Position numbers and translations under genes: made by a program. Positions 7,886 to 36,597 of a stretch of DNA of 64,000 nucleotides are shown in pieces. Within the stretch, counting starts at the first letter, position 1. Every line of letters starts with the position of its first letter. This DNA is from Myxococcota bacterium (GTDB taxonomy: Bacteria; Myxococcota_A; SURF-8), in assembly GCA_965140415.1 (NCBI GenBank), contig OZ223209.1, positions 1,376,001-1,440,000 on the forward strand. The letters run 5' to 3'. A model generated the notes under the pieces. That model saw nothing but the letters and a program-made list of their open reading frames with translations. It did not search any database and was not told the DNA's origin.

Positions 7886-7899
7886 ACACAATCTATCCA

Positions 7900-17542: not shown

Positions 17543-18355
17543 GTGCCAGTCTTGATCACCCTGTTCAACACCATTTTCCAATCCATCAAAGCGCGCCTGG
17601 AAGGCTTCGGCCTGTTCGGCATGATGATCTTCGACACGCTCGCCTGGACTTTCCGTCCGCCGTTTCGTTTCAAGCAACTGTTGCGACAACTGGAGTTTGT
17701 GGGCAGCAATTCGATGTCGATTATTCTACTAACAGGCTTTTTTACCGGTGCGGTGTTTGCCCTGCAATCGGTACTGGCTTTTCGCATCTTTAACGCCGAA
17801 AGCATGGTGGGTTCCACAGTGGCGCTGAGTTTAACGCGGGAACTCGCTCCGGTATTGACCAGCCTGATGGTCACCGGGCGCTGCGGCTCGGCCATGGCTG
17901 CGGAAATCGGCACCATGCGCGTTACCGAACAGATCGACGCGATGACCTCCATGGCGGTCAACCCGGTGCAGTATCTGATCGTCCCGCGTTTATGGGCGGC
18001 GGTGATTATGGTGCCGGTATTGACCATGGTATTCAACGCCATCGGCACGTTCGGAGCCTATGCGGTGGCGGTCTGGATCAACAACATCGATCGAGGCATT
18101 TTAATGGACAACATCTCCTGGTTCGTCGATCCGGCAGATATTTACATCGGATTGACCAAGGCGGTGATTTTCGGATTCATTATCGCCATGGTGGGCTGCT
18201 TTAAAGGATTCACCACCAAAGGCGGCGCACGCGGCGTGGGAATCGCCACGACGCAGGCTGTGGTCGTTGCCAGTGTGACGATTTTAGTGGCCGACTATTT
18301 CCTTTCGCAGTTGATCAACACGCTTTTCGAGCAGAAAACCTGGCTCGTATATTAG
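17543..18355 (+). CDS. mlaE: MlaE lipid-asymmetry ABC permease
   Basis: RELAPVLT, GSAMAAEIGTMRVTEQIDAM, VPR, GGARGVG.ATTQAVV. Confidence 0.95.
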   Translation: MPVLITLFNTIFQSIKARLEGFGLFGMMIFDTLAWTFRPPFRFKQLLRQLEFVGSNSMSIILLTGFFTGAVFALQSVLAFRIFNAESMVGSTVALSLTRELAPVLTSLMVTGRCGSAMAAEIGTMRVTEQIDAMTSMAVNPVQYLIVPRLWAAVIMVPVLTMVFNAIGTFGAYAVAVWINNIDRGILMDNISWFVDPADIYIGLTKAVIFGFIIAMVGCFKGFTTKGGARGVGIATTQAVVVASVTILVADYFLSQLINTLFEQKTWLVY

Positions 18356-18366
18356 GATCGTTTGTC

Positions 18367-19101
18367 ATGGATACCGCCGTTCGCTTTGTCAACGTCACCA
18401 AACGTTTCGGTTCCCAGCTCGTGCTGGACGAACTCTGCCTGGACATTCCCAGGGGGCGCATCACGTATATACTGGGTCGCTCCGGTGTGGGAAAAAGCGT
18501 ATTGATCAAACACATCATCGGTTTGCTGAAACCGGATGCAGGGGAAGTCTGGGTAGACGGGCAGGACGTGACCAGGCTTTCCGAGGCGCGTTTGAATGAA
18601 CTGCGCATGAAGTTCGGCATGTTGTTTCAGGATGCCGCCCTGTTCGACAGCATGACGGCATATGAAAATATCGCGTTTCCTTTGCAGGAGCACCGCGCTC
18701 TCTCCGCGAAGGAAGAACGGGAAGTCGTTGCCAGTAAGCTGGCCCAGGTCGGCTTGAGTGGCGTGGAGGAAAAATTCCCTTCGCAACTTTCCGGCGGTAT
18801 GCGCAAACGTGTCGGATTGGCACGGGCCATTGCGCTGGACCCGGAAATCATTTTGTACGATGAACCGACTACCGGGCTGGACCCCTTGATGGTTCAGCAG
18901 GTGGACGAGTTGATCGTGAAAACGCAGGAACAGCAGAAAAGCACCAGTATTGTCATCAGCCACGATATTCCTACGGCGCTGCGCTCTGCCGATCTTATTG
19001 CCGTGTTGGATGCGGGAAAGATCGTAGCGTTGGGAGAACCGGAGGAAATCCGCAAGAGCGAGCATCCCTTCGTTAAGGAGTTTCTACTGGCCGGGAATTG
19101 A
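18367..19101 (+). CDS. mlaF: MlaF/Mkl ABC ATP-binding protein
   Basis: GRSGVGKS, FQDAALFDSM, LSGGMRKRVGLARAIALDP, DEPTTGLDP. Confidence 0.93.
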   Translation: MDTAVRFVNVTKRFGSQLVLDELCLDIPRGRITYILGRSGVGKSVLIKHIIGLLKPDAGEVWVDGQDVTRLSEARLNELRMKFGMLFQDAALFDSMTAYENIAFPLQEHRALSAKEEREVVASKLAQVGLSGVEEKFPSQLSGGMRKRVGLARAIALDPEIILYDEPTTGLDPLMVQQVDELIVKTQEQQKSTSIVISHDIPTALRSADLIAVLDAGKIVALGEPEEIRKSEHPFVKEFLLAGN

Positions 19102-19239: not shown

Positions 19240-19980
19240 TTACCCTTTGAACATGATGGCGGTTCCGGCAAAGAGCAGCACGGAATAAACGAAGATGCGG
19301 AAGCCCCTTTCGGGGAGCTTGTTGTGTATCCCTTCGCCGATAAAAATGCCCAGCGCCAATGCGGGCGAGAGTTGCAGGCTGATCATTAAGGTCGATGAGT
19401 CGATGCGCCCTGCGGTCAAATGGCCGATAAGCAGGATGAGGTTGAGGATCAACCAGACGGCGCTCAAAGTGCTGCGAAACACCCGTTTGTCCGGTAGCGA
19501 ATAGCTGGCCCAGTACGCGATTAGCGGACCGCCCGAAACCCAGAGTCCTTGAACGACGCCGCCGACCAGCAGCCACAATCCGGATGCTTTCGACTTCGGG
19601 TCGGAAAGATTCTGTGGAGGATTATGGAAGTGTCTATATAGCTCGAAAAGCGCCAGGAAGAGCACGAAGGCGCCGAACAGCGGCTTCATCCATCCCGCTT
19701 CCGCCTGGCCGAACAACCACAAGCCCAGCGGCATTCCGGCGATGGTCAGTGGAAGAATGCGCTTGATCAGCGCCTGCACATCGATGCCGCTGCGATGGCG
19801 TATTGCCAGATAAAGACAGATCACGATGTTCAACGGAACGATCACCGGGACCATCAGCGAAATGGGAAAAAGCAGCACGGAGAAGGTCAGGGAAATAATC
19901 GCGCTGCCGAAACCGACGGCTGCCCCTACCATGTAGCCGATCAAGATAATCGGAAAGAGCGCGGCATATTCAAACGACAT
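19240..19980 (-). CDS. TauE/SafE sulfite-exporter family membrane protein
   Basis: GAAVGFG in the N-terminal half and GGVVQG..SGGP in the C-terminal half; multiple TM helices. Confidence 0.85.
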   Translation of the reverse strand: MSFEYAALFPIILIGYMVGAAVGFGSAIISLTFSVLLFPISLMVPVIVPLNIVICLYLAIRHRSGIDVQALIKRILPLTIAGMPLGLWLFGQAEAGWMKPLFGAFVLFLALFELYRHFHNPPQNLSDPKSKASGLWLLVGGVVQGLWVSGGPLIAYWASYSLPDKRVFRSTLSAVWLILNLILLIGHLTAGRIDSSTLMISLQLSPALALGIFIGEGIHNKLPERGFRIFVYSVLLFAGTAIMFKG

Positions 19981-19996
19981 CGAAAATCCCCTGCAT

Positions 19997-20839
19997 TCAA
20001 GCGGATATACGCGCAGCAACGCCACGCGAGAGGAACATCACTCCGGTTACGACCAGTAACATCAGTAACACCTGCGAAAGCGTGGGAAAGATACCATAAA
20101 TCGCGATTTCCAGAAACAATGGCGTTAGAATCGTGGCGGAATTCACGGCGGATACGACTTCGATGGCCCGGCTTTTTAGAAAACCGAATTGCGTAATGAC
20201 CGTGGCGGAGGCGGCGAACAGCAGTGCGACATAAGGGTAGGGGTTATCCAGTTGGCCGGAAAAAGAGCCGCCCGCTTCCACGAGGGCGATGTCCGCAAGA
20301 AAAATGGCCAAGCCGATACAGGTACCCGCCAGACAACCGAAGGCCAGGCCATGAATGGCGCGGTAAAAGCGTGCGAGAAAGCAGGCGACTGCGCCAGCCG
20401 CAAGCAGGATGCCGATGGAGATGATCAGCCGCCCTAACGAAAAGTGACGCTCCGTGATCTCGTGGTTTCCGCCCAAATAAGCCAGGGCGGAGGTGCCTAC
20501 TACCACGAGAGCGATTCCGATGAAATCGCTTTTACCGAAACGCTCCCCGATGACGTTGACCGCATAGATTCCCAATCCGATCAGACCTACGCCGGTCATA
20601 GCCGAAACGGAAGACGGCGACTGCGAGAGCTTCAGTCCCAGCGAAAAGGGAATGGTTGCGCTGGCGGTCATTGCAAAACCCAGAATCCAGAAAATCAAGT
20701 CGCGCCGATGAGCGGAGGTCAAGATCAAGCGTCCGCTGGTGAACACATGCACGAATTGCTTCTGTACGCCTTTGCCGATGTTCATCAATAAGGCCGCGAC
20801 GATTCCGAGCATAAGCCCGTAAACAAACAGGTCGTTCAT
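19997..20839 (-). CDS. Multi-pass membrane protein, DMT-superfamily-like
   Basis: About 9 hydrophobic segments; GKGVQK and IGER patterns resembling DMT/NIPA-type transporters. Confidence 0.6.
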   Translation of the reverse strand: MNDLFVYGLMLGIVAALLMNIGKGVQKQFVHVFTSGRLILTSAHRRDLIFWILGFAMTASATIPFSLGLKLSQSPSSVSAMTGVGLIGLGIYAVNVIGERFGKSDFIGIALVVVGTSALAYLGGNHEITERHFSLGRLIISIGILLAAGAVACFLARFYRAIHGLAFGCLAGTCIGLAIFLADIALVEAGGSFSGQLDNPYPYVALLFAASATVITQFGFLKSRAIEVVSAVNSATILTPLFLEIAIYGIFPTLSQVLLMLLVVTGVMFLSRGVAARISA

Positions 20840-20847
20840 CGACTCTC

Positions 20848-22050
20848 CTATAGCAGCTTGGCCGCTTCGAGCATGAGTGTGTCGTTGGTGCCGTCCATAA
20901 TCGCCAGCAGTGGCGCGTCGCGGGAGTATTTTTCCAGTTTGTAATCCTTCGCGATACCGTAACCGCCAAGAACCTGGACCATTTCGGAGGTATGGCGAAT
21001 CGCGAGATCCGTGGTATGGATTTTACCCGTCACGCTGGTCAGCAGATCGCCGGGGAAGGCGTTCTGGCAATGCCAGCTTCCCTTCCACAACAGCGCTCGG
21101 CAGGATTCGATGGCCGTGCGACATTCGAACAGGCGCTTGGTGACGAGTTGATGTTCGATAATCGGTTTGCCCCACTGAACGCGTTCCTTGGCGTAAGCCA
21201 GCGCTTCTTCATACGCAGCGCGCATCAGGCCGACCGCCAGATAGCCGGTGCCCAGGTTTCCAACGGTCATGATGGAATGATGCAGGAAGGGATAGGCATC
21301 TCCCGGCGGGAAGATCAGGTGATCTTCGGGGACTTCGACATCATCGAAGTAAACCGGGGCCTGATTGAGTGCCCGCAGGCCGATGCGGTCTACGGCTTTG
21401 CCGCGCGTGACACCGTCTGCATCGCCCGGAATGATGAACGCGCCTGAACCCCGTATGCCCAGTTCGGGAGAGATGCAGGCGAAGATGATGTAGTTTTTGG
21501 CGATTCCGCCGTTACTGACGAAGTTCGATTTCACCCCGTTGATGACGTAGCGGTCGCCTTTTTTGACGGCGGTGGTGCGATGGCGCACTTTCGGATCGAA
21601 ATAGTTTTTTCCGTCCGAGCCGATATCGGGTTCGCTGCTGCCCCAGGCGGTGATGGCGTTGCCGGTTTCATCTTCGCAGTAGGGGCGCACGTACCGGTCG
21701 ATCAGGTCTTGATTTGTGGAGGCCAGAAATGCCGTAAGAGCCGGCACGACGGAGGCGGCCATCAGCGATGCGGTGAAGCCCGTTCCGTAGCGGGCAAGCT
21801 CTTCCCAAATCAGCGCGTTCGTTGTGGGTTCAAGCCCCAACCCGCCGAATTCTTCTCGGATGCCCATTTTGTGAAAACCGAGTTGAAAAGCCTGGGCCAT
21901 GGTCTTGCGGAAAAGCTCCGATTCGAACGCGGCTTGCGGGTCGGACATTTTATCCAGTTCGATTTCGGCGGGTTCCAGCATCTCTTTGCCGAAATCCCGA
22001 GCGGTCTTGACGAACTGAGTTTGAGTTTCGGATAGCGTAAAATCGATCAT
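20848..22050 (-). CDS. Acyl-CoA dehydrogenase family protein
   Basis: EEFGGLG, SEPDIGSD, INGVKSNFVSNG, YAKERVQWGKPI, QVLGGYG, RDA..LAIMDGT. Confidence 0.93.
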   Translation of the reverse strand: MIDFTLSETQTQFVKTARDFGKEMLEPAEIELDKMSDPQAAFESELFRKTMAQAFQLGFHKMGIREEFGGLGLEPTTNALIWEELARYGTGFTASLMAASVVPALTAFLASTNQDLIDRYVRPYCEDETGNAITAWGSSEPDIGSDGKNYFDPKVRHRTTAVKKGDRYVINGVKSNFVSNGGIAKNYIIFACISPELGIRGSGAFIIPGDADGVTRGKAVDRIGLRALNQAPVYFDDVEVPEDHLIFPPGDAYPFLHHSIMTVGNLGTGYLAVGLMRAAYEEALAYAKERVQWGKPIIEHQLVTKRLFECRTAIESCRALLWKGSWHCQNAFPGDLLTSVTGKIHTTDLAIRHTSEMVQVLGGYGIAKDYKLEKYSRDAPLLAIMDGTNDTLMLEAAKLL

Positions 22051-22059
22051 CCTATCCTC

Positions 22060-22824
22060 CTATTCGCCGCTGCTGAAGTCGGTCATTTTAAAGTAATGGG
22101 GTAAAAAGCTTTCCTGGTCCACTTCCTGAAGGATCTTGCCCGGCAGCATCGTGTTGTGACTGACGATATGGAAAGCCATGATGACGCTTAGCCCGTCCAG
22201 TTCATGCCAGGGATCGGTTTCGGAAGGTTGGAACGTGACTTGTGCGCTACCGATTTCGAGTTCGACCAGGTCGATCTCGGTTTTCTGCTCGGCCAGGAAC
22301 ACGGGACCGTCGAAGCCGGGCTTCAGATCGATGCGGGGCATCCCCTTGAAAAGATAGGTCGGACCGCTCACCGGAAGTTCCGGTAACGTGCCGGACAACT
22401 CGCCTTTGATCTCCAAGAAGCGCACACCGTTGCGTTCGACCCAGCCGTGGATGCGGTTGCCGTCCTTTTCGTAATGGATATTCGCCATCTTTTTCGGGAA
22501 GCCGAAAATGTCCCGCCCGTTGTAATTGCGCGCTTCATTGTTTATCGGCATGGAAAGACAGTATGCACCCGGTTGTCCCTTGTACTTGCAGCGGATAAAC
22601 AAAGCCGCTTCGTGATAGCCCGGTCCGAGATTGGTTTTAGGATATTCGGCGATGAAGATCAATCCACCGGGCATGTCCGCCTGTTCCAGCGGCGCGGGAA
22701 GCAGGGGCGCGGTCTGTTCGGCTGGCGAGGAAAACATCACGCCCATCATCTTGGCATTCTCGAAGCGCCGCACGCCCAGTGCGTAGTAACGTTCCAACTC
22801 TTCGGTAGTTTTCACAAAGCCCAT
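22060..22824 (-). CDS. Acetoacetate-decarboxylase (ADC)-family protein
   Basis: LLPAPLE, YHEAA, GRDIFGFPKK (Schiff-base Lys motif). Confidence 0.88.
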   Translation of the reverse strand: MGFVKTTEELERYYALGVRRFENAKMMGVMFSSPAEQTAPLLPAPLEQADMPGGLIFIAEYPKTNLGPGYHEAALFIRCKYKGQPGAYCLSMPINNEARNYNGRDIFGFPKKMANIHYEKDGNRIHGWVERNGVRFLEIKGELSGTLPELPVSGPTYLFKGMPRIDLKPGFDGPVFLAEQKTEIDLVELEIGSAQVTFQPSETDPWHELDGLSVIMAFHIVSHNTMLPGKILQEVDQESFLPHYFKMTDFSSGE

Positions 22825-22858
22825 TGTCTTACCTCCATGATTCTTGTTGGTTGCCGTT

Positions 22859-24697
22859 TCAGGAAAACTTTTTATACATCCCGATTTTCGAGGACTGCGC
22901 CTTCAAGATGGCCCACTCTACGAAACCGGGTGACAAGCGGTAAATCATCCAGCCCAATACGCCCACCTTCGTCATGATCAAGCGGCGTTTCCGTTTTCGG
23001 ATCATGTCGACGATCAGTGAAGCGGCATACGCCTGGGTATGGTGTGCGGGCCGATCCGGAGGCACCGGTGTGCCGTCTGCGGCGAGGATGCGCTTTTCCG
23101 GGTCGTGTTCGGTAAAGCCGAGATACACGACGCCCGAATGTACGCCGTCTTCCGCCAGTTCCAGGCGCAGCGATTCGCTGAATCCAGTTAGAGCGCTTTT
23201 ACTGGCGCAATACGTGGACGCGCCGGGTAAGCCGAACAGGCCTGCGATACTGGAAACGAAAACAACGTTACCCTTGTTCTTTCGCAGGTCGTCGATGGCG
23301 GCAGAGGTGGGATAGATACAGCCCATCAGGTTGGTTTGAATCGTCTGTGCGCAGACCTCCGGGGCAAGTTCGTGAAATCTGCCACGCATGGAAACCCCGG
23401 CATTGTTCACCAGAATGTCCACCGGGCCGAACGCTTCACGCGCTTTGGCGACCATGTTTTGAGCGTCATCCCAGTTGCCGACGTCCCCGGTGACCGCTTC
23501 GACCTGGCCTCCGAGTGTCCTTAATTTGGCGAGAGAATCCATCAGCCGGGTTTCCCCCCGAGCGGAAATGACGACCTTGGCCCCGCGCTTCACGAATTCG
23601 CGCGCCAACGCGTATCCGACCCCGCGACTCGCGCCCGTTACCAACACGACGCGATCCTTGAATTCATCGCGGAGGTTACTGAAAATATGGCCGTATCGCA
23701 TCAGGCTGCGCAAGGTTTCCGCAATGCCCGTTTCGATGGGTGTCTGGGGCAGGTCGAGTTCACGTATGGCTTTTTGTGAACTGTAGTAGGTGCCGCAGAT
23801 GGCAAGCTTTGCCAGAGTGCGGTTCAAACCGATACTTTTACCGGTCAGTGTTGTGATGAAACTGCCCAGCAGGCCGATCAGGAGAATCAAAAAACGCGGC
23901 AGCACGTACTTGGGCGGCGTGACACCGATTTGGCGTGCGACCTGGGTGAAGAAATCCTTATAGGTCAGGTTCGGTCCGCCGAGAATGTAGCATTCTCCGT
24001 TACGACCCTTATGCAATGCCGAGATCATGGCATCGGCGACATCCGGTGCGTAGGCGAAGTTGCGGCCACCCGCCGTGACTGCTTTCATCTGACGCACGAT
24101 GAACTGGCGGATCAATTCGCCTGAACTGGGACGCCAGTCGAGATCGCCAAGCATGAATGTCGGTGAAACGACGACGGCTTCCAGTTTCTTTTCATTGACG
24201 TACTGCAATACGAGATTCATGGCGCTGTGCTTGGATTCCATGTACGCAACGCCGTGGTAGCCTTTGGCCATCGGAGTGGTTTCGTCGCCCGGCTTCTCGA
24301 TAGAGCCGTAGCCGAAGGAACTGGCCGACCCGGTGAAAATCAGGCGGGTAACGTTCTTGGCCACGCAGGCATCCAGCACTTTCCGAGTCCCCTCAAAATT
24401 GACCTTCCACGTCAATTCGGAACTGGCCCACATATCCGTGATCGCCGCCAGGTGAAACACATAGGTGCAGCCGTCCATGCACTCCGCCAGCCCGTCGCCT
24501 TCGTCGAGCAGATCGCCTTCGACTCGCTCGATGTTCAGCCCGTCCAAGGTGGGACTGGTGCTCCCCTTTTGACTGAGAACCCTGACCTGGTACTGTTGTT
24601 CCAACAGTTTGCGGACCAGGTGGCTTCCCAGCAAGCCATCGGCACCGATGACGAGTACCCGTTCTTTCAAGTTGTCCGTTTCTGCAACCATATTCAT
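22859..24697 (-). CDS. Fusion of extended SDR (HpnA/dihydroflavonol-reductase-like) and classical SDR
   Basis: N-half GADGLLG, FHLAA, YMESK; C-half TGASRGVG, NNAG, YCASK; ATGA overlap with the activase stop (alternative start 24691). Confidence 0.9.
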   Translation of the reverse strand: MNMVAETDNLKERVLVIGADGLLGSHLVRKLLEQQYQVRVLSQKGSTSPTLDGLNIERVEGDLLDEGDGLAECMDGCTYVFHLAAITDMWASSELTWKVNFEGTRKVLDACVAKNVTRLIFTGSASSFGYGSIEKPGDETTPMAKGYHGVAYMESKHSAMNLVLQYVNEKKLEAVVVSPTFMLGDLDWRPSSGELIRQFIVRQMKAVTAGGRNFAYAPDVADAMISALHKGRNGECYILGGPNLTYKDFFTQVARQIGVTPPKYVLPRFLILLIGLLGSFITTLTGKSIGLNRTLAKLAICGTYYSSQKAIRELDLPQTPIETGIAETLRSLMRYGHIFSNLRDEFKDRVVLVTGASRGVGYALAREFVKRGAKVVISARGETRLMDSLAKLRTLGGQVEAVTGDVGNWDDAQNMVAKAREAFGPVDILVNNAGVSMRGRFHELAPEVCAQTIQTNLMGCIYPTSAAIDDLRKNKGNVVFVSSIAGLFGLPGASTYCASKSALTGFSESLRLELAEDGVHSGVVYLGFTEHDPEKRILAADGTPVPPDRPAHHTQAYAASLIVDMIRKRKRRLIMTKVGVLGWMIYRLSPGFVEWAILKAQSSKIGMYKKFS

Positions 24698-25602
24698 CCT
24701 CCCCATATCGGCTGGCAGCCTGCCAATTGAAATGCATCCACGATGCGTTGCCTGTCTTTTTCCTGTACGTTCTCGAAAGAACGGTAGTCGTTTATACGTC
24801 CGGTTCGTTCGTATTTTCCTTTGGCCCAGCCGTGGTAAGGCAATAGGTCCACGCGACCCGTATAACCGGCCTTTGCTAGAAAGGCGGACATCGTTTCGAT
24901 GCTGTGGTTATCAGTGTTGAATTCCGGAATGAGCGGAATGCGCATGATCAATTTGTCGGCTGCAGTCGAGATCAACTGCTGAAGATTTGCCATGATGGTG
25001 TCGTTACTGACACCAGTGTAACGGCGATGTGTTTCGGGATCGTGATGTTTGAAATCGAAGAGGAATAGGTCTACAGCGGAGATAAGTTCCGGGAGGAGGT
25101 TCGTGTTGAAATGTCCGCAGGTTTCGATGGCGGTATGTATGCGTTCGCTTTTCAAGCGCGCCAGGATCTCGAGCAGAAACTCGGGTTGGCGCGTCGGTTC
25201 GCCTCCACTGAAGGTCACGCCACCACCGGATGACTCATAGAATGGGCGATCGGCCAGCAAGAGCGGCATGAGATCGTCTGCATCCATGTCATATCCGATG
25301 TATTCCTGCGCCGATTCGGTGCAGGTTTCCACACAGGTTCCGCAGACTGTACAGCAGTTCAAATCCCTGCTGATGCGGCCATCGGTCAAGGATAAGGCTT
25401 GCTCGGGGCAAGTCTTCACGCAGTTGCCGCAGCCGATGCAGGTTCGGCTGCGCCAGCCGATTTCTTTCTTGTCGGATTGCGACTCGGGGTTGTGGCACCA
25501 TGCGCACTGCAAAGGACAGCCCTTTAAAAAGACGCAGGTACGGATTCCGGGGCCGTCGTAGATGGCGTTGTACTGGATGTCGAAAAGAACGCCAGTGGTC
25601 AT
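24694..25602 (-). CDS. Glycyl-radical enzyme activating enzyme (radical SAM, ferredoxin insert)
   Basis: DGPGIRT, CPLQCAWCHNPES (CX3CX2C), CIGCGNCVKTCP and CTVCGTCVETC, GGVTFSGGEP. Confidence 0.97.
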   Translation of the reverse strand: MTTGVLFDIQYNAIYDGPGIRTCVFLKGCPLQCAWCHNPESQSDKKEIGWRSRTCIGCGNCVKTCPEQALSLTDGRISRDLNCCTVCGTCVETCTESAQEYIGYDMDADDLMPLLLADRPFYESSGGGVTFSGGEPTRQPEFLLEILARLKSERIHTAIETCGHFNTNLLPELISAVDLFLFDFKHHDPETHRRYTGVSNDTIMANLQQLISTAADKLIMRIPLIPEFNTDNHSIETMSAFLAKAGYTGRVDLLPYHGWAKGKYERTGRINDYRSFENVQEKDRQRIVDAFQLAGCQPIWGG

Positions 25603-28215
25603 TTAGAAAGCTCCATGTTCGGTACGCGCGATAATTTCATCTTGAATTTCGCTTCCCAGATCCACGAAGTAGGTGCTGTATCCGCCGACCTTGACGATCA
25701 GATCCTGGTGCTTTTCGGGATTCGTTTTCGCTTCGCGCAATTGCTCCGTGGAAACGCAGGTAGGCTGTAGCTGTGCGCCTCCCATGTTGAAGTAGGTACG
25801 GATCAGTTGTATCCATTTGCGTTGCGTTTCTTCGGTTTCGCCGATTGCACTGGGGTGGAATTTCATGTTGACGGCGCTGCCCATGACATCGCCAAACGGC
25901 AGGGCAGCGACCGAGCGAAGTGCGGCTGTTGCGCCGAAACGCTCGACGTTATACGGATTGCAACTGGCCGCATAAGGAAGCGCCGCCTTGCGACCGTCCG
26001 GTCCGGCGATGGAAAGCCGCCCGTCGATGGTATGGGTAATCATGCTGATGACGTACACCACGAAAGGCCCGTTCCGGGTGGTGCGATACTTGTAGGTGAT
26101 ATCGAATAGGCGCTTGCATACGGTGGCCGCCAGTTCATCCGATTCCGGGTGCCCGTTTCCCCATTTGCCGGGAAGAGCTTTGATCTTTTTTGCAAGCTCT
26201 TCATAACCGACGAAGGAGTGATCCATGGCTTCTAAAAGTTCGCGCATGCTGCAAGCACTCTCTTCGTAAACCAGCTTTTTGATGGCATAGAGCGAATCGA
26301 CCATGTTGGCGATGGAGTTGATCATCGAAATACCAGCCAGATCGTAGGTCGCACCACCAGTAGTGACATCTTGCTTGGATTGCAGGCAGCCATCCATGAA
26401 AGCCGAGATGTAAGGTGCAGGTAGATAGCGAGAGAATAACGAATCGCGCAGGTTCGATCCATTGACGAGTTTTTCGATGAAAAATTCCGCCTGCTTGTAA
26501 AGTGCTTCCAGGAAGGATTCGAAATCCGGGAAGTCGTCGGGATCGCCCGTGCTGGGGCCTTCCTGCTTGATGATCCCAGCCAAAATCGCCGAGTCCCCGT
26601 TGCGCATGGTGATGTCGAGCAGCCGTGCCAGTTGCAGCGCATTGGCGCTCATGCTACCGGTTTTTCCGGGACAGGTCGCTTCGACACAACCCATGACAGC
26701 GTAGTTTCTCGCATCCTCTTCCAGAAAGCCTCTCTGAAGCATGGATTCGATATGCGTCGTGTCGTTGAACAGGGAATAACTGGACGTACCCTGCTTCAGG
26801 TAGTGGGCCACGGCTTGCAGAAGCTCGCTGGGCGTGTTGTCGTGAATGCGGATGGACACGTTGGTGATGGCCTTGGAATGGTGCGCCGCTTCGATGAAAA
26901 GATAGGTCAGCTCATTGGTTGCGTCCTGGCCGCTTTCGTCCACACCACCTAAGGTGATCGGGGATGATCCCAGAAAGCGGTGATAGAAATTACTTAAAAT
27001 GTTGGATTCGGGACGAATGTTCTGGCTCATGATTTTAAGTAGCAGCTCTTCCAATAACTCCAGGGCGTCCTGTTTCGATATGTCGCCGCTTTCGATGTCG
27101 CGCCGGTAATAGTCGATCAGGCTCTGATCCAAACGACCGAAGCAATGCAGATTGACCGGATGAGCCAGTTCCAGAGCGGTCTTGACCGTCCACAGCGACT
27201 GAACCGCCTGCCGGAAACTGCCGGCGGGTTCGAAGGGAACGTGGCGGCAGATGTTAAGCATGGTTTCAAGTTCGCGCTTGCGTTCGCTGTCGTTTTCCCG
27301 TTCCATTTCGTTCGCAAGCTTTTCTGCCAAGCGCTTGGAAAACACCTCGACGCCTTGCAGCGCAACAAGTTGCGACTCCAGTGCGGCTTTCTGTTCGGCT
27401 GTCAGATTCTTTTGATCCAGGGCCGCACGAAGGTTTTCAATCAATCCCTTTAATCCAAGGCGAAGGACGCTTTCGTAATCCGCAATGACGTGCCCCTGAT
27501 AGGTGGCGATGGTCGTACAGGTGGAAACCATTTGCACCTGCCGCGACGTGTTGCCCGGCAGCGCCACGGCGAAGTCGTGCATGTCCTTGGAGTACAAGCC
27601 GGATTTCAGCGTCTCCCGTTCCAGGTGATCGACCACGGTTTGGCCGTCCCAATACGGGAGAAGCTGGCTCAGTAACTCTTTTCGATCGTCTTTATTGATG
27701 TGATAGGGATTGATGTTTCGCTCGCCCATGGTTTTGAAATCCATGTTCAGCGGTTGCGATCCCGCCATTTTGGCGAGCTTCTGATTGCGCATGAAGTCAC
27801 TAAGGGTTCCCTTTTTCAGCATGTAGGAAAGCCCTTTGGCCATCGAACCGATTCTGAAACGGATCATGGAGGATTTAGTCAATTCAGCCTGAAAGACCTT
27901 GTTGAACACGCCGCGCTCGATGTCGATGGGAACGCCAAGGAAGAATTCGGTCCAGCTACCGGCTATGCGTTCGTCCCGGTCGAGGTAGATCGTCATGTTT
28001 TCGAAAACGTGCTTCATTGCATGGGCCACGCGCAGAGGTAGCGGCATTCCCGAGTTTTCCGTTTGCTGCCAGCTTTGCGTGTAGTAGCGGGCGCGTTCGA
28101 CGGAAATCATGGCGGGTCCGAACTGGTAGCGATGCTTCATCCTGGCGATGCGGCTATCCGGTTCGTTTAGGTAGCGATCCGTTTCTGCTGATAGCTGATG
28201 TGTGGTTTCCAACAC
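25603..28215 (-). CDS. Glycyl-radical enzyme (PFL2/eliminase-like, divergent)
   Basis: ERA..T, GRLDQ, TLGG, DATNELT, Cys loop GCVE, KWGN, PDGR, Gly loop IVKVGGYSTYF, QDEIIART. Confidence 0.95.
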   Translation of the reverse strand: MLETTHQLSAETDRYLNEPDSRIARMKHRYQFGPAMISVERARYYTQSWQQTENSGMPLPLRVAHAMKHVFENMTIYLDRDERIAGSWTEFFLGVPIDIERGVFNKVFQAELTKSSMIRFRIGSMAKGLSYMLKKGTLSDFMRNQKLAKMAGSQPLNMDFKTMGERNINPYHINKDDRKELLSQLLPYWDGQTVVDHLERETLKSGLYSKDMHDFAVALPGNTSRQVQMVSTCTTIATYQGHVIADYESVLRLGLKGLIENLRAALDQKNLTAEQKAALESQLVALQGVEVFSKRLAEKLANEMERENDSERKRELETMLNICRHVPFEPAGSFRQAVQSLWTVKTALELAHPVNLHCFGRLDQSLIDYYRRDIESGDISKQDALELLEELLLKIMSQNIRPESNILSNFYHRFLGSSPITLGGVDESGQDATNELTYLFIEAAHHSKAITNVSIRIHDNTPSELLQAVAHYLKQGTSSYSLFNDTTHIESMLQRGFLEEDARNYAVMGCVEATCPGKTGSMSANALQLARLLDITMRNGDSAILAGIIKQEGPSTGDPDDFPDFESFLEALYKQAEFFIEKLVNGSNLRDSLFSRYLPAPYISAFMDGCLQSKQDVTTGGATYDLAGISMINSIANMVDSLYAIKKLVYEESACSMRELLEAMDHSFVGYEELAKKIKALPGKWGNGHPESDELAATVCKRLFDITYKYRTTRNGPFVVYVISMITHTIDGRLSIAGPDGRKAALPYAASCNPYNVERFGATAALRSVAALPFGDVMGSAVNMKFHPSAIGETEETQRKWIQLIRTYFNMGGAQLQPTCVSTEQLREAKTNPEKHQDLIVKVGGYSTYFVDLGSEIQDEIIARTEHGAF

Positions 28216-28225
28216 GTCCTCGCTT

Positions 28226-28840
28226 TCACTTTTCCGGCGGTCCGTTCTCGACGGAATCGATCAGTACGTTTGCAAGCCAGCTTAAATGCAGCTTGCGCTC
28301 TTTGACCAACGCCTTTGACATCGGGTCTTTATTGAGCAGGCGGCTGAGCAACTCGTCGTAGGTGAAATAGCTGATGATCGCGCCGTAATAGCTGACGAGT
28401 AGATGCTCGGCAGCGGTTTCTCCCTTTTTCGTCTTCGGGTAGACGTCTTTTAGCGCCCGGATTCCGAGATCGAAGAGCGGGGTCATATGCGTGGCGATAC
28501 GATCCAGGTGAGCGCCCCCGGCGGCTTCCCGCTGGACGATGCGCCCGAAATTCCGATTCTCGATTAGGAAATCGACGTACGCATCGATCAGGGTTTGCAG
28601 GCGCTCGCGTAAGGTGACGTCCTGGGAAAGGGTGCTTTGCAACTGTTGACCTAGTTTCACGTAGTATCGGTCCAGTAGTTCGGTTAAAAGCCCCTGCTTG
28701 CTTTGAAAGTGGTAATGGATCAATGCCTTGTTCACGTTCGCACGTTCCGCAATTTCGCGGGTGGTTGTGGCATCGAAACCGATTTCACCGAACAGTTCAT
28801 CCGCTGCTTCAAGAATTTTCTCTTTTGCATTCGTACTCAT
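28226..28840 (-). CDS. TetR/AcrR-family transcriptional regulator
   Basis: KILEAADELF..GFDATTTREIAERANVNKALIHYHFQSK helix-turn-helix. Confidence 0.95.
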   Translation of the reverse strand: MSTNAKEKILEAADELFGEIGFDATTTREIAERANVNKALIHYHFQSKQGLLTELLDRYYVKLGQQLQSTLSQDVTLRERLQTLIDAYVDFLIENRNFGRIVQREAAGGAHLDRIATHMTPLFDLGIRALKDVYPKTKKGETAAEHLLVSYYGAIISYFTYDELLSRLLNKDPMSKALVKERKLHLSWLANVLIDSVENGPPEK

Positions 28841-28871
28841 AATCGACTCGCTCTATGAATGTGTGCGTGAA

Positions 28872-28927
28872 AATTAACCGGTCGCCCAATTAATTTCAAT
28901 TATCAGCATACCGCAGGGAATTGTCAA
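28872..28927 (-). promoter_or_regulatory. Sigma70-like promoter with a candidate TetR operator
   Basis: Minus strand TTGACA (28927-28922), 17 bp, GATAAT (28904-28899); imperfect palindrome aattaaccggtcgcccaatt at 28872-28891. Confidence 0.55.
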
Positions 28928-29146: not shown

Positions 29147-30571
29147 CTATGGTTCCAATTTTCCCGGATTCAGGATGCGATTCGGATCGAGCAGGTTTTT
29201 TACGCCCTCGATGACGTCGAGCATGGCTGGGTTGATCTTTTCGGCCATGCGCTTCCAGGCCCAGCTTGGCGTTTTGTACATCAGGAAACCCTTTTCGCTG
29301 AGCATGGTAAGCAATTCGCTGTTCAGCGCTTTGATGGCCTCGACTTCCTTTTCGTTCTTCTTGTCGAAAATGGCGATGAAGCGCAGAACGCCGAAGTGAC
29401 CGCCGCGCATGGGGCGGGAAACGATGATCGGTGGGAAACCATGGCGTGTCATGATTTCGATGCCCGCCTCTGCGCCTTCCTGAAATTTGGACAGGGGACC
29501 GTAGGTGCCGATCCAGGTCAAGCCGCCGCCGCCGTGGTCGGTGAGAAAATCCAGGTCCGTCGGGAATTCCGCGAACTTGTTCATCTTCGGGTTCACCTTG
29601 ACCAGCGTTTCGATATCCAGTGGGTCTTCGTAGCGTTCGCCATCTGCCCGTAACTCGTGGATGACGGAAAGCAGAATCTTCTCTTTGACCTTCATTTCTT
29701 CTTCGATCTCCGCCGTCAGATCGATGTAGAGGAAAAACTGCGGTTCGCCTTCGGAGGGGACCGGATGCGGTCGCTTGACGCCCATCATCATCTTGCCCGA
29801 AGGCCAGCTCAGTCCGCCGATGTCATCGCAGATTTCTTTTTTGACAAGTCGCCGCATGGCGCGATAGGTCGCCTGGGGATCGTAGGTCAAAATAAAGAGC
29901 CGCTTATTCAACGGATGGGCGGGCCAGAGCTGGAAGGCCATTTTGACGGCAACGCCCGTGGTGCCCTGCCAGCCGATGAACAAGCCGGTCAGATCTGGAA
30001 AAGGCACGAGTCCGAATGGTGTTGTGTTTTGATGCGCCCAGGCACCGGTTTTTAAGATGTCGCCATTGGGCATAACGACTTCCAGCCCGGAAATCCAGTC
30101 CGACTGATCACCGTATTTCAGCGAGCGGTTGGTCAAGCCGCCCAGCAAAGCATTGGCGAAAATCGAGGTGTTCGGCGGCGCCAGAGAATATCCCAATGTC
30201 AACGGCAGGTCGTGTTCGATGAGATAATCTTTGATGATCTGCTGGGTGACACCGGGCTCGATGATGGCGTACATGTCGTCTACGTTGACTTCCAGCACCC
30301 GATTCATGCGTGTCATGTCGAGCACCACACCGCCGCGCTCGGGGATGGTCAGCCCTCCGACATTGGTGCCGTAGGCACGCGGGGTAAGTGGCATTTTCAA
30401 CTCGTTGGCATGGGCGACGATTTTCCGTACCTGTTCCGCATTATCCACCATGGCCACAAATTGAGGATCGTGGGCGGGGGCCTCGGTAAAGTCCTCGCGA
30501 TATTTCGCGATGTCGTCCGTTTGTGTGAGCACATTTTCAGCGCCGAGCAGATCGATTAAAAATTGTTTCAC
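29147..30571 (-). CDS. FAD-linked oxidoreductase (VAO/PCMH family; GlcD-like)
   Basis: GTNVGG, LDMTRMNRVLEV, EPGVT, GLEVVMPNG, GWQGTTG, C-terminal LDPNRILNPGK. Confidence 0.9.
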   Translation of the reverse strand: MKQFLIDLLGAENVLTQTDDIAKYREDFTEAPAHDPQFVAMVDNAEQVRKIVAHANELKMPLTPRAYGTNVGGLTIPERGGVVLDMTRMNRVLEVNVDDMYAIIEPGVTQQIIKDYLIEHDLPLTLGYSLAPPNTSIFANALLGGLTNRSLKYGDQSDWISGLEVVMPNGDILKTGAWAHQNTTPFGLVPFPDLTGLFIGWQGTTGVAVKMAFQLWPAHPLNKRLFILTYDPQATYRAMRRLVKKEICDDIGGLSWPSGKMMMGVKRPHPVPSEGEPQFFLYIDLTAEIEEEMKVKEKILLSVIHELRADGERYEDPLDIETLVKVNPKMNKFAEFPTDLDFLTDHGGGGLTWIGTYGPLSKFQEGAEAGIEIMTRHGFPPIIVSRPMRGGHFGVLRFIAIFDKKNEKEVEAIKALNSELLTMLSEKGFLMYKTPSWAWKRMAEKINPAMLDVIEGVKNLLDPNRILNPGKLEP

Positions 30572-30640
30572 GGTATTGCTCTCCTTGATCGTCTGGTAAG
30601 AGATGGAATGCCTTTGTAAATTGAATCGATCGAAGCTGCA

Positions 30641-31012
30641 TCAGGTAGTAATCAAAGGCAGCATTTTCAGCAGGGCAAACGGATTGCCGCCGATCTTCAG
30701 CTTCCCGGCCATAAAGGGTGCGACCATTCCCGCTCCTGTGACTACACCGAGCAGTGAGGTCATGGTGCCGGCTACTCGTGCTTTGGATTGGCCCGTATCG
30801 CCGCGAATGATCGTCAGTTGACCGTCGGCAAAGCGCAGCGTGACCGACATATCCGCTGCCTTTACCAGGATGTCTCCGCTCATCGAGCAGGCGCGCGCGT
30901 ACTTGTGCTCGTCGGCGAGATTGTTGGAGAGCAGCCCGTGCATCAAAAGGCCAAGGATGCTCATTTTTTCCGGTTCCGCAAGGACCACCCGCTCATTGAC
31001 ATCTCGTTGCAT
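30641..31012 (-). CDS. SCP2 sterol/lipid-binding domain protein
   Basis: 123 aa; C-terminal FMAGKLKIGGN typical of SCP2. Confidence 0.7.
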   Translation of the reverse strand: MQRDVNERVVLAEPEKMSILGLLMHGLLSNNLADEHKYARACSMSGDILVKAADMSVTLRFADGQLTIIRGDTGQSKARVAGTMTSLLGVVTGAGMVAPFMAGKLKIGGNPFALLKMLPLITT

Positions 31013-31035
31013 GTTGTTCCCTCGATTTCATCATG

Positions 31036-33180
31036 TTATCTGGATAGTGACGTTCTACAGTCGATTCCCTCCACAAAACAAGGGCCGTCGTTGCAGTGCA
31101 TCACGATGCGTCCCTCCTCACCCTTGGCGAAATAGTCGGCAACCTGTTGGTATACTTCCTCGTTGCAGCGCAGGGCATGATGCGCGCCGTTATCGAAAGT
31201 ATCTGCGTTACTGTAACTGGGTTCCTCTTTGCCGGCGTCGTAGAGCACCATACCGGAACTTCCTGCTTGCGTTGGAGTTGAGATGGTCGCGGTCGCGCCG
31301 AAGATTTCATGCGTGCTCGGCAATACGAGAGGAATGTCCGCAGAGCGTAAGAGGGCATATGCGCCGAAATCGGGGGCGTTGGCATCGTGATAGGAAACCT
31401 GCCAAAGCAGATTCTTTTCGGATTTTCCGTCTAGACGGGATATTAAGAAACGCTCTCGCCAGTTGATGGGGTCGATGGGGTCCAGTGCTCGCTGGACCAG
31501 GGCGAGAATGATCTGCTGATGAATGGGATTCGGTTGAAAGATTTCCAGCATCGCCTGAAAATCCGTGAATTCGGCGGAATGCTGCAATAACGAGGAAAAC
31601 ATGGCGCTGGGCACGTGCAATACCGCCGTGCCGATATCTTCCGACAATGCAATACCGACTGCACCGGCTATGGCTCCCAGGCTGATTCCGAAGTAATAGG
31701 TTCGATTCGGATCGATCAGGGAATCGCCTGCACTGTTCAAAAGCAAAGGATCTTGCTTCAAGGTGGTATTGACGAAGTCCGCCATGCGGTCGTAATCGAG
31801 CATGCCTTGAATCAGGCTGTCGTGCAGCATCCACATGCGGTCGAAGGTTTGCAGGATCGTGACGATGTCGCCAAGGTCCGCAGTGGCCATGCCTTTGAAG
31901 TCCGCACCAATGGCAAACACGCCCAGCTCATCAGCCATTTCCAAGGTGCCGTTTTCGTCGCGATCCGTCATGATATAGCGCCAGGCGGCGGACATCAGCC
32001 CGTGACCGACGAGCATGGTGGGGACGGAGGCGCTTGCACTCTGGCGCGTGGAAACGGGTAAGGCGGCGGCAATGGCCACTCGTTCGTTTTGCTGGAAAAC
32101 GGGAGAGCCGTTCTGCCAGTTCATGACGCCGTTTTCCATGAGATAGCTGGGTAACAGGACCGATCCTTCCATGCGACGCCATATGCTTTGATGCAGGTCG
32201 GGATTTTCCGAGCAGTTAAAGGTTTCCCGATCCGCTAGATCGGCAGCGATGCAGGTGGTTTCGTACTCCAAATCACTTGTTGCGGTTTGTTTGCGTACGG
32301 CGTCTAGAGCGGCCAGCAGTGGTGCTTCGGCAAAGTCTCTGCTCATGGTGATGAATTCCCAGGCAAGCACAATCGAGCTTTTCTCTACATCGTTTGTTTG
32401 CAGGAATTCGAAAAGATCCTCATAGTCGCTGAGCTGGGATTCGATCTGGTTGCTGTCCGTCGGATTGCCGTCTAACAGAGCCTGCATGGCGTGTGGAATC
32501 GGTAATGCATCACCCGTGTCGGTTTTAACTTTGTCTGTGACCACCACAGCGTATCGATGACTCCAGCGCAAGGCTTGCTGAGGTCGGATGATCATGCTGC
32601 GCTGCTCGTCAATCCAAGTACCGGACGCATCACGCGCGTAGTTGTCCATCTCGGCCCAGACCGGAATCCGTTCGCCCGTTTCCCGGTCGAGAATCTGAAC
32701 CGACGAATTCATCGTAACACTTTCGGCGAGAGTATGCAGCGAAGGCAAGCTACTTTCATCGACGTGCACATCGGGGAAAATCGCCAGAATCGGACTAGCT
32801 ATGGAGAAGCCGTCGGCAGCGTTGAAGCGTTGCAGGAAGTAGTCCCGGCCTTCCTTTGAACTTACTTCAAAGGGCAGCATTTCGGGAGTCAAGGCGACCC
32901 TGTAGCCGGTTGGGGACGTCTGCTCGGTTTGTAGTTGCGCCATCGACGGATAGGGGTACATGCAGACTTCGGAAATCAAGTGGGCGCAACCGGCTTCGGT
33001 GGAAAGAGTGACGATCTCTTTTTCCGTATCCGATTCGCTAGCGTATTCCAACTCGTTATCGCCATCGGTAGCTGTATCCTCCGGGTCGCTTTGACAGGCG
33101 CAAACAACCAGCAGAAAACAAGCTATGATTGACAGCGATAGCAAAGCAGATTTCAATTTTAGGCGCGTATTTTCGTTCAC
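31036..33180 (-). CDS. Lipase-like lipoprotein (Ig-like N-terminal region plus alpha/beta hydrolase)
   Basis: GTG start at 33180 overlapping the upstream stop; lipobox VCAC; PYPS, DGFS, IIRP..L, HGL, nucleophile elbow GISLG, DP motif, late His. Confidence 0.75.
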   Translation of the reverse strand: MNENTRLKLKSALLSLSIIACFLLVVCACQSDPEDTATDGDNELEYASESDTEKEIVTLSTEAGCAHLISEVCMYPYPSMAQLQTEQTSPTGYRVALTPEMLPFEVSSKEGRDYFLQRFNAADGFSIASPILAIFPDVHVDESSLPSLHTLAESVTMNSSVQILDRETGERIPVWAEMDNYARDASGTWIDEQRSMIIRPQQALRWSHRYAVVVTDKVKTDTGDALPIPHAMQALLDGNPTDSNQIESQLSDYEDLFEFLQTNDVEKSSIVLAWEFITMSRDFAEAPLLAALDAVRKQTATSDLEYETTCIAADLADRETFNCSENPDLHQSIWRRMEGSVLLPSYLMENGVMNWQNGSPVFQQNERVAIAAALPVSTRQSASASVPTMLVGHGLMSAAWRYIMTDRDENGTLEMADELGVFAIGADFKGMATADLGDIVTILQTFDRMWMLHDSLIQGMLDYDRMADFVNTTLKQDPLLLNSAGDSLIDPNRTYYFGISLGAIAGAVGIALSEDIGTAVLHVPSAMFSSLLQHSAEFTDFQAMLEIFQPNPIHQQIILALVQRALDPIDPINWRERFLISRLDGKSEKNLLWQVSYHDANAPDFGAYALLRSADIPLVLPSTHEIFGATATISTPTQAGSSGMVLYDAGKEEPSYSNADTFDNGAHHALRCNEEVYQQVADYFAKGEEGRIVMHCNDGPCFVEGIDCRTSLSR

Positions 33181-36378: not shown

Positions 36379-36597
36379 CCGATTGATAGGTTGAATGGCT
36401 AAACTACGGAAACTCGGTCGAAAACAGCAGGATGACGATATAAAGGTTATGTTTAGTTATAGTGCGAAAGGGGACTGCTTTGTCAAAGAGTTTCTATCAA
36501 CAGGGAATTAATCCGAATTACTTGCGAAACTCGGCAGTTTACTTATACTGGTAAAACTGACCGCACCGCTTCGTTGTTTTGTTTGATTGGCGAGGAT

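Follow-up and report, generated by a model that had tools for sequence, protein, structure and literature searches.

A conserved operon around an uncharacterized glycyl radical enzyme family of the 1,2-eliminase type in a Myxococcota genome: a candidate undescribed anaerobic catabolic pathway

New functions found for glycyl radical enzymes (GREs) have repeatedly revealed anaerobic metabolism, as for choline, hydroxyproline, isethionate, 2,3-dihydroxypropane-1-sulfonate, and anhydro-sugars. Here we analyze a 64,000-nt stretch from the genome of a Myxococcota bacterium (contig OZ223209.1, positions 1,376,001 to 1,440,000; hereafter the window, in whose coordinates positions are given unless another locus is named), in which the gene for a divergent GRE is the second in a run of eight co-oriented genes. 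A June 2026 review (PMC13450708) lists as characterized GRE eliminases glycerol dehydratase (GD), propanediol dehydratase (PD), HpfG, HypD, HpyG (once printed HypG), HpzG, CutC, IslA/IseG, and HpsG and as characterized isomerases HplG, YbiW, and PflD; it also states that entire GRE clades, and all archaeal GREs resembling pyruvate formate-lyase (PFL), lack an assigned function. None of the characterized enzymes in that list has the gene context of the window, and full-text literature searches found no paper on the gene cluster. A first-pass annotation of the stretch, made from its sequence alone, had proposed a candidate undescribed anaerobic catabolic pathway; this proposal stands, as the GRE does not cluster at high identity with any characterized class and its homologs retain the core of its neighbors (see below). 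The eight genes, in the order of their reading, are as follows.

28226-28840, minus strand: TetR-family regulator, 204 aa (PF00440, 69.1 bits)
25603-28215, minus strand: GRE, 870 aa, with Gly845, Cys510, Glu512, and His242 (PF02901, 477.9 bits; PF01228, 73 bits)
24694-25602, minus strand: GRE-activating radical-SAM enzyme (activase) of 302 aa that carries CxxxCxxC and has a ferredoxin-like insert (TIGR02494, 330.6 bits, cut-off 174.35; Pfam Radical_SAM and Fer4)
22859-24706, minus strand: fusion of an extended short-chain dehydrogenase/reductase (SDR; HpnA/3beta-HSD-like, residues ~1-345) and a classical SDR (~346-615), from Pfam, NCBIfam, and motifs
22060-22824, minus strand: acetoacetate-decarboxylase-family (ADC-like) protein, 254 aa (PF06314, 150.6 bits)
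20848-22050, minus strand: acyl-CoA-dehydrogenase-family (ACAD-like) flavoprotein, 400 aa (all three ACAD Pfam domains)
19997-20839, minus strand: polytopic membrane protein, 280 aa, EamA/NIPA-like (DMT), accessory (ESM Atlas feature neighbors only, score 0.95)
19240-20025, minus strand: TauE/SafE-family anion permease, 261 aa, accessory (PF01925, 97.9 bits against a cut-off of 32.6)

These open reading frames run head to tail over 19240-28840, with intergenic gaps of 8 to 34 nt except at two junctions where neighboring genes are in contact. The stop codon of the GRE gene (TAA, 25605-25603) abuts the ATG of the activase gene at 25602, and the stop codon of the latter (TGA, 24696-24694) is overlapped by an ATG at 24697-24695 (ATGA), which is preceded by GGGGAGGA and is the likely start of the SDR fusion. 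The co-orientation, the gaps (given earlier as at most 35 bp and found here to be at most 34 nt), and both contacts had been reported in the first-pass annotation, and all are borne out by the sequence. So is its statement that the locus lacks microcompartment genes, a pyrroline-5-carboxylate (P5C) reductase, and the small subunits of Bss and decarboxylase systems: the operon has no unassigned coding space, and the microcompartment shell family PF00936 has 0 matches in the whole host genome, which is 93.7% complete. The GRE starts at GTG 28215 or TTG 28212; its homologs align from residues 3 to 22 onward, so the 835-aa call in the database is too short.

In a sequence search of the PDB, the GRE matched HpsG at 337.4 bits, PD at 334.5, CutC at 334.3, GD at 332.1, IseG at 313.3, and HypD at 312.1, and its scores against BSS, MASS, and HPAD were 153 to 177 bits. 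With the NCBIfam equivalog models it stayed below half of every cut-off: HpsG (NF048011), the best equivalog, gave 428.1 bits against a cut-off of 1000; HypD (NF043068) 396.6 against 1100, there being no P5C reductase in the operon; HpfG 388 against 1000; CutC (TIGR04394) 377.1 against 1050; the PflD-type model (PRK09983) 350.4 against 1109; and PFL 96.5 against 994. The PFL2-3 subfamily model TIGR01774 gave 458.8 bits, under its cut-off of 678.2. AlphaFold2 modeling from 37 sequences of the family gave a confident structure (pLDDT 85.6, pTM 0.89), whose best Foldseek matches were the diol dehydratases 5I2G, 1R8W, and 9RCO (TMq 0.80-0.82, 27 to 28% identity), closely followed by the remaining GRE eliminases, and identity to any solved GRE is at most 28%. 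In the protein database, no fewer than 119 clusters (90% level) show 59 to 73% identity to the window GRE; in species-representative genomes, homologs were found at 30 loci, including 26 at 55 to 73% identity, two from Asgard archaea at 47%, and one fragment at 43%. The boundary of the family is sharp, identity falling from 47% to 32% at the next GRE, and in a phylogenetic tree its members group tightly at the end of a long branch, the Asgard sequences falling at two separate places among them. By these sequence measures, the enzyme represents a discrete, uncharacterized GRE family of the 1,2-eliminase type, in agreement with its earlier description as divergent. Its hosts include Myxococcota, Desulfobacterota, Hydrogenedentota, Syntrophomonadaceae, and Asgard archaea, with at least six bacterial phyla represented, and within the phylum of the window it occurs in 5 of the 301 genomes searched, the host included. 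Such a patchy spread across phyla is as expected of a transferable catabolic module.

The gene neighborhoods of this family were compared by tblastn of the window proteins against the 30 GRE-anchored loci, many of which are cut by contig ends; 17 of them have at least 5 kb on both sides and are termed fully flanked below. A second scan was anchored on the ADC-like gene and comprised 79 loci (80 were returned, and L022 was dropped as already counted); it shares contigs with the GRE-anchored set and is not independent of it. All loci of both sets derive from metagenome-assembled genomes (MAGs) or uncultured bins. Homologs of the SDRs were found in 20 of the 30 GRE-anchored loci (14 of the 17 fully flanked ones), of the ADC-like protein in 21 (13), of the ACAD-like protein in 20 (13), of the TetR regulator, which stands next to the GRE, in 18 (13), and of the activase in 16 (10). 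The 280-aa permease was recovered in 6 loci and the TauE protein in 4, every one of these fully flanked. Thus, the conserved core consists of TetR, the GRE, less regularly the activase, two SDRs, the ADC-like protein, and the ACAD-like protein, and the two permeases are lineage-specific accessories. The neighborhood whose conservation the first-pass annotation had put up for testing (TetR, SDR, ADC, ACAD, and TauE) therefore has to be trimmed: its first four members hold up in 13 to 14 of the 17 fully flanked loci, and TauE (4/17) falls out of it, as does the DMT-like gene (6/17). The product of the latter is a membrane protein with no Pfam or NCBIfam match, and the DMT label that it received in the first-pass annotation is a lead from EamA/NIPA proteins among its language-model neighbors.

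Gene order within these loci is variable, with ADC-ACAD upstream of TetR in some and the SDRs divergently oriented in others, which argues for selection on the co-location of the genes. Several related loci encode the two SDR halves separately. The closest relatives, L003 and L025 from Myxococcota MAGs (GRE 73% identical), keep TetR, the GRE, the classical SDR, the ADC-like and ACAD-like proteins, the 280-aa permease, and TauE. In L002, L008, and L027, the vicinity of the GRE includes genes for aldehyde:ferredoxin oxidoreductases that belong to a single blastp cluster (Pfam was scanned for L002 and L027); these fit an aldehyde product.

Active-site residues were mapped by hand on HMMER alignments, and their conservation was counted in 120 sequences of the GRE family. 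Gly845 (loop KVGGYS), Cys510, and His242 are each invariant (120/120). The Cys-x-Glu motif recorded in the first-pass annotation is present as GCVE (C510/E512), and Glu512 is retained in 117 of the 120, with Asp in the remaining 3. His242 corresponds to GD His164 and to the GH motif in PD, and the HpsG residues R183/Q187/R672, which form its sulfonate triad, fall on Ala237/His242/Tyr721, which are conserved in the family. The positions of GD S282, Y339, and D447, which we take to be the glycerol-contacting residues of that enzyme, are occupied by Leu356, Ser417, and Ala524, each in at least 116 of the 120 sequences (Ser417 and Ala524 in 119). These replacements are smaller or apolar and thus suggest an uncharged substrate larger than glycerol, with a 3-substituted propane-1,2-diol (a glycerol ether, ester, or glycoside) or a longer diol as the suggested candidates. 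The family further possesses a specific insert of about 50 residues (112-150), basic and partly amphipathic, that forms two helices in the AlphaFold2 model, and a loop after beta-1 that is 12 residues longer and carries a nearly invariant Ser224-Arg225-Gln226 just upstream of His242. According to PMC13450708, this loop lines the substrate channel in GREs, Cys-x-Glu is kept by all C-O eliminases and isomerases among GREs, GD His164 protonates the leaving hydroxyl, and all three solved C-S lyases hold the sulfonate by two Arg and one Gln (R183, Q187, and R672 in HpsG). As His242 is present and the sulfonate triad is missing, we read the window GRE as a C-O 1,2-eliminase. Cleavage of a C-O, C-S, or C-N bond had been proposed before, and of these C-O is favored by the invariance of His242 and C-S is disfavored by the loss of the triad.

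As to the third bond type, the GRE would act on an amino alcohol much as CutC acts on choline, releasing ammonia or an amine; a sphingoid base and an ethanolamine-type head group are examples of such a substrate. The motif Cys-x-Glu is also found in CutC and HplG, CutC is among the best PDB matches at 334.3 bits, and sphingoid bases had been named as substrates in the earlier proposal; nevertheless, we consider C-N elimination very improbable, since TIGR04394 scores 377 bits against 1050 required, the position of GD His164 holds His rather than the Asp of CutC, and the conserved core has no aminotransferase or amine-handling gene, in contrast to another GRE of the host, which adjoins two aminotransferases.

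The enzymes encoded downstream of the C-O eliminase candidate give further pointers. In the SDR fusion, Pfam recovers Epimerase/3Beta_HSD at residues 17-266 and adh_short at 352-535, and both halves keep their cofactor and catalytic motifs (GxxGxxG/YxxxK and TGxxxGxG/NNAG/YxxxK, respectively). The N-terminal domain scored 229 bits with HpnA (cut-off 367.65), 134 with SdmB, a sterol demethylase component (600), and 85 to 95 with OleD-type 2-alkyl-3-oxoalkanoate reductases (580). HpnA, SdmB, and OleD are all lipid-pathway enzymes, and these relatives hint at a lipid-like or beta-hydroxy/beta-keto-acid intermediate. A possible membrane anchor of the SDR fusion was also considered as a sign of a lipid substrate and dropped: the hydrophobic segment 267-290 is not conserved in homologs, and the C-terminal tail is merely amphipathic.

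The ADC-like protein is a distant member of its family (59.1 bits with NF002614 against a cut-off of 150; 26 to 40 bits with 3BH2 and 3BGT in the PDB) for which the ESM Atlas returned only generic ADC clusters. It keeps Lys111-Lys112 and Glu72, the counterpart of Glu76, with the Lys and Glu invariant in 18 of 18 sequences, and in the alignment to 3bh2/3bgt Arg29 and Glu61 of the clostridial enzyme are replaced by Ala24 and Ile56. We take the Lys pair to be that of the Schiff base and Arg29 to be the carboxylate-binding residue. In the ACAD-like protein, Asp386 aligns with the catalytic Glu E367 of butyryl-CoA dehydrogenase 1BUC; it stands in an MD[GA]T motif in 18 of 18 sequences, is likewise invariant in alignment A2, and is the probable catalytic base as judged from these alignments, an arrangement also known from nitroalkane oxidase. 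The best NCBIfam scores, 196 bits with the acryloyl-CoA reductase AcrC (cut-off 640) and 151.9 with 3-sulfinopropanoyl-CoA desulfinase, reach no equivalog cut-off. An ACAD gene was found in the same locus in 74 of the 79 ADC-anchored loci. Complex prediction for the two proteins gave an ipSAE of 0.53, the best of 3 controls reaching 0.00, with at least 95% of contacts shared between runs and a partner pLDDT of at least 90. Of 80 solved complexes, 58 attain this mark, as do 2 of 110 mismatched pairs, and the band up to 0.60 holds 7 of those 80 complexes and both mismatches; the prediction thus lends weak support to a complex of the ADC-like and ACAD-like proteins.

The sequences establish the gene content, the conservation of motifs and neighborhood, and the distinctness of the family; from these features we infer the chemistry, the order of the steps, and the class of substrate, and we favor, at slightly better than even confidence, an inducible catabolic operon whose first step is a radical C-O elimination by a diol dehydratase or beta-hydroxy-ether lyase. 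The activase would install the glycyl radical on Gly845, from where it would move to Cys510, and the latter would abstract hydrogen from the hydroxyl-bearing carbon of the substrate. Glu512 would accept the hydroxyl proton, and His242, as the counterpart of GD His164, would protonate the oxygen leaving group (hydroxide, alkoxide, or acyloxy) on the adjacent carbon. In this way, either a vicinal diol would be dehydrated or a beta-hydroxy ether or ester would be cleaved, and an aldehyde or ketone would result. This carbonyl product would be handled by both SDR domains and then by ADC-ACAD acting as an obligate pair, with the ADC-like protein forming a Schiff base via Lys111 and the ACAD-like protein using Asp386 as the base. 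TetR would keep the promoter repressed and release it on binding the substrate or an early intermediate.

The hydrophobic substrate of the earlier proposal is a conjecture for which the indications diverge. The nearest relatives of the N-terminal SDR are lipid enzymes, and these, together with SCP2 and secreted hydrolase-like genes upstream in the host genome only, hint at a lipid; on the other side, the transporters that accompany the cluster in other genomes (GPH symporters, anion-type major facilitator superfamily [MFS] proteins, and TauE) suit small soluble compounds. The alkylglycerol ether, sulfonolipid, and sphingoid base named in that proposal are guesses. A bolder version of the lipid idea, to which we give a small chance, would make the GRE the first ether lyase of the glycyl-radical type to act on free lipids or lipid head groups, breaking the C-O bond next to the free hydroxyl of glycerol monoethers or of related beta-hydroxy ethers (alkylglycerols, lyso-ether lipids, and glyceryl glycosides, for example), after which the SDRs and the ADC-like and ACAD-like proteins would channel the fragments into central metabolism. 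YbiW and PflD, as described in PMC13450708, cleave an ether C-O bond neighboring a deprotonated hydroxyl. If true, the ether-lyase reading would mean oxygen-independent breakdown of ether lipids in anoxic sediments, including by Asgard archaea and sulfate reducers.

The TauE gene raises the question of an organosulfonate route, in which the operon would degrade a sulfonate, with TauE as the passage for sulfite or for the sulfonate itself. Cleavage of the C-S bond would fall to the GRE via another anion site (Arg225/Gln226), to the ADC-like protein through downstream beta-elimination from a beta-sulfo aldehyde, or to the ACAD-like protein as a desulfinase. Besides the presence of TauE in the window operon, this route can claim TauE-family permeases beside ADC-ACAD in 6 loci that lack a GRE of the window's family (window-type GRE), the near invariance of Arg225-Gln226, a score of 151.9 bits for the ACAD-like protein against the desulfinase, and the rank of the C-S lyase HpsG as both top PDB match (337.4 bits) and top equivalog (428 bits); the DsrAB, AprA, and Sat proteins of the host (see below) could respire the sulfite. 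However, the Arg/Gln/Arg triad is replaced by Ala/His/Tyr and His242 is a dehydratase-type residue, the HpsG score falls far short of 1000 and is barely above those of PD, CutC, and GD, and the ACAD-like protein scores higher with acryloyl-CoA reductase (196 bits) than with the desulfinase. The TauE family is also broad, a sulfate reducer has no evident need for sulfite export, and TauE of the window type is rare, occurring in 4 of the 30 GRE-anchored and 8 of the 79 ADC-anchored loci. We therefore regard the sulfonate route as unlikely. The TauE-family permeases of the 6 loci without a window-type GRE belong to one 8-protein cluster, of which one representative was scanned (PF01925, 116.6 bits), and such permeases follow ADC-ACAD rather than the window-type GRE.

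Returning to the C-O elimination operon, several points weigh against it. The GRE eliminases are nearly equal matches both by sequence (313 to 337 bits for the best five) and by fold, so that the dehydratase-like assignment rests mainly on His242 and the missing sulfonate triad, and Ser224-Arg225-Gln226 could bind an anion, which is our chief reservation about dismissing an anionic substrate. The closest relatives, L003 and L025, have neither an adjacent activase nor the extended SDR half. The operon has no CoA ligase, CoA transferase, or acylating aldehyde dehydrogenase, which leaves the origin of an ACAD substrate unexplained, and the ADC-like protein has no counterpart of the clostridial carboxylate-binding Arg29. 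Finally, a window-type GRE is found in 37 of the 79 ADC-anchored loci and is missing from 14 of the 32 that have 8 kb on both sides; the ADC-ACAD pair may accordingly serve a substrate that comes from elsewhere than the GRE.

This last point leads to the possibility of two independent neighbors: the GRE and the SDRs would form one pathway, and ADC-ACAD, a portable carbonyl/acyl-CoA module, would be hitchhiking beside several types of GRE. ADC-ACAD is a portable two-gene module that is also found without the window-type GRE, and the contexts of the 14 loci just mentioned are varied: Desulfobacterales loci combine the pair with an AraC regulator, an anion-type MFS protein, and a TauE-family permease, and other contexts have enoyl-CoA hydratases, an AMP-ligase, or a biotin-carboxylase set with MFS and two TauE genes. 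The pair also adjoins divergent GREs of the Cys-x-Glu type with the GD-type His that are 25 to 33% identical to the window GRE (L132:4025-6727, L142:4030-6543, and L183:922-3840), those of L132 and L142 accompanied by their own activase, and four fully flanked loci of the GRE family (L024, L026, L027, and L030) lack ADC. Against such independence, the window genes lie 9 to 34 nt apart in one operon; ADC and ACAD accompany the GRE family in 13 of the 17 fully flanked loci across several phyla and in varying order, a signature of functional coupling; and the recurrence of the module beside different His-type GREs speaks for its acting on a GRE product. We regard the independence of the two neighbors as unlikely.

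The ADC-ACAD loci without a window-type GRE include L141, L144, L145, L150, L154, L159, L165, L180, and L181. A recurrent order among such loci is AraC, ADC-ACAD-MFS (or a 462-aa protein without a Pfam or NCBIfam match)-TauE, and in L180 and L181 ADC-ACAD adjoins a biotin carboxyl carrier, a biotin carboxylase, and a carboxyltransferase.

Regulation of the operon is addressed by two candidate elements upstream of tetR.

28899-28927, minus strand: sigma-70-like promoter TTGACA-17-GATAAT upstream of tetR (11 of 12 consensus positions, the best of 5 sites in the region)
28871-28896, minus strand: imperfect inverted repeat AAATTAATTGG-4 nt-CCGGTTAATTT directly past the -10 hexamer, candidate TetR operator (by eye, 9 of 11 arm positions complementary)

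The promoter had been pointed out in the first-pass annotation and is present at 28927-28899, 59 nt ahead of the tetR ATG. It is plausible because of this position and not because of site statistics, since the 5 promoter-like sites of the region do not exceed the number in shuffled sequence (6.5 +/- 3.0). The inverted repeat may be the TetR operator; it was not reported by the repeat finder with a seed of 6, and its pattern is absent from the related loci searched. PDB matches of the TetR protein cover mostly the DNA-binding domain and are uninformative as to its ligand.

Three genes of the same orientation lie upstream of this promoter.

29147-30571, minus strand: VAO/PCMH-like FAD_binding_4 flavoprotein, separated from the operon by a 306-nt gap
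30641-31012, minus strand: SCP2 lipid-carrier-like protein
31036-33294, minus strand: 752-aa secreted protein with a GISLG nucleophile-elbow motif and no Pfam match

These genes (29147-33294) are possibly associated with the operon. They are not conserved beside the GRE, except for a FAD_binding_4 homolog in two Asgard loci: in L013 and L015, a protein 30 to 33% identical to the upstream flavoprotein directly follows the GRE. The identification of this flavoprotein as AGPS, which would have linked it to ether-lipid synthesis, was rejected, as it is VAO/PCMH-like and matches alkyl-DHAP synthase only at E 1e-06.

The window lies within a single 5.98-Mb contig, and the aspartyl-tRNA synthetase of the genome has its closest match in named genomes in a Myxococcota MAG (70% identity). 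The host encodes DsrA (580 bits), DsrB (514), AprA (900.7), and Sat (383.5), all above the curated cut-offs, and from these markers it is probably a sulfate-reducing anaerobe, a setting in which GRE chemistry makes sense. The markers, a complete set for dissimilatory sulfate reduction, are at L192:6262-8772, about 10 kb past the end of the window, and, in host genome coordinates, at 1297621-1299474 (aprA) and 2457000-2458154 (sat).

The host genome has three PFL-like GREs. The two others are likewise uncharacterized and of the Cys-x-Glu/His type (L031:9601-12096, plus strand, 32% identical to the window GRE; L032:9299-11815, minus strand, 30%), and neither reaches an NCBIfam equivalog cut-off. 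That of L031 has no adjacent activase. That of L032 is accompanied by an activase, a GntR/FadR-like regulator, two class-III aminotransferases, a Zn-dependent dehydrogenase, an MFS protein, and a CocE/NonD hydrolase, a context that suggests an amine-bearing substrate.

Elsewhere in the window, parts of a Mla-type lipid-transport system (MlaE permease, ABC ATPase, and a MlaD-domain protein) flank the operon on the opposite strand (17543-19101 and 36574-38115, both plus). An RloB-like protein (PF13707) paired with an AAA_21 ATPase (14764-16732, minus) lies in a low-GC stretch, the GC content being 0.445 to 0.485 between 10 and 18 kb of the window and about 0.54 elsewhere, and the pair looks like a small acquired island of the defense or abortive-infection type. 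A 1,362-aa CobN/Mg-chelatase-like protein that adjoins a TonB-dependent receptor and a MotA/ExbB-like protein (3767-10218, minus) is possibly part of a unit for metal-porphyrinoid uptake or chelation, and a 2,025-aa protein (43154-49231, minus) consists largely of LVIVD repeats (PF08309, 344 bits).

The GRE family is a good target for experimental work, being large, sharply separated, transferred across phyla, and tied to a conserved pathway with two unusual enzymes. Ligand screening of the TetR regulator, which stands beside the GRE in 18 of the 30 loci, would be a cheap way to find the substrate. With the substrate identified, sediments and digesters would gain a newly defined anaerobic carbon sink and the ADC-ACAD pair a new type of reaction.

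Of the known systems, GD (1R8W) and PD (5I2A/5I2G and 9RCO) are alike in the ten-stranded GRE fold, the Gly loop, Cys-x-Glu, the general-acid His, and an activase with a ferredoxin-like insert. The window GRE differs from them in being only 27 to 28% identical (332 to 334 bits), in the replacement of the substrate-contact positions (L356, S417, and A524), in the 112-150 insert and the 12-residue-longer beta-1 loop, and in having KVGGYS in place of RVAGYS, and its host has neither a 1,3-propanediol dehydrogenase context nor microcompartment genes. With the C-S lyases HpsG (6LON), IseG (5YMR), and IslA (7KQ3) it shares Cys-x-Glu, a TauE-family gene nearby, and top scores to HpsG, but it lacks their Arg/Gln/Arg anchor and remains under half of the equivalog cut-off of 1000. 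The isomerases YbiW and PflD, which open the ring of 1,5-anhydrohexitol-6-phosphate, resemble it in their Cys-x-Glu chemistry and are a precedent for the ether-lyase reading; they differ in their PDB scores of 270 to 297 bits and in a sugar-phosphate context that the window operon lacks. The X-succinate synthases and aryl-acetate decarboxylases differ in their small subunits, for which gaps of at most 34 nt leave no room in the operon. A limonene GRE was also considered as a relative and set aside, being described as a fumarate-adding enzyme, unrelated to this one.

Among the partner enzymes, acetoacetate decarboxylase (3BH2 and 3BGT) and the ADC-like protein have in common the Pfam ADC family, the Lys-Lys pair, and the Glu76 counterpart, and the latter is set apart by Ala24 and Ile56 and by a gene that is regularly paired with the ACAD-like gene. 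The ADC-like aldolase-dehydratases Sbi00515, Swit_4259, and MppR are further known systems close to it. The ACAD-like protein shares the three-domain fold family of the short-chain acyl-CoA dehydrogenase 1BUC and differs in having Asp386 and no adjacent genes for an electron transfer flavoprotein (ETF), and the N-terminal SDR differs from HpnA, SdmB, and OleD in its fusion to a classical SDR and its place in a GRE operon. Thus, the known part of this system is the mechanism of the GRE eliminases, and its new part is a distinct GRE family with a new downstream module.

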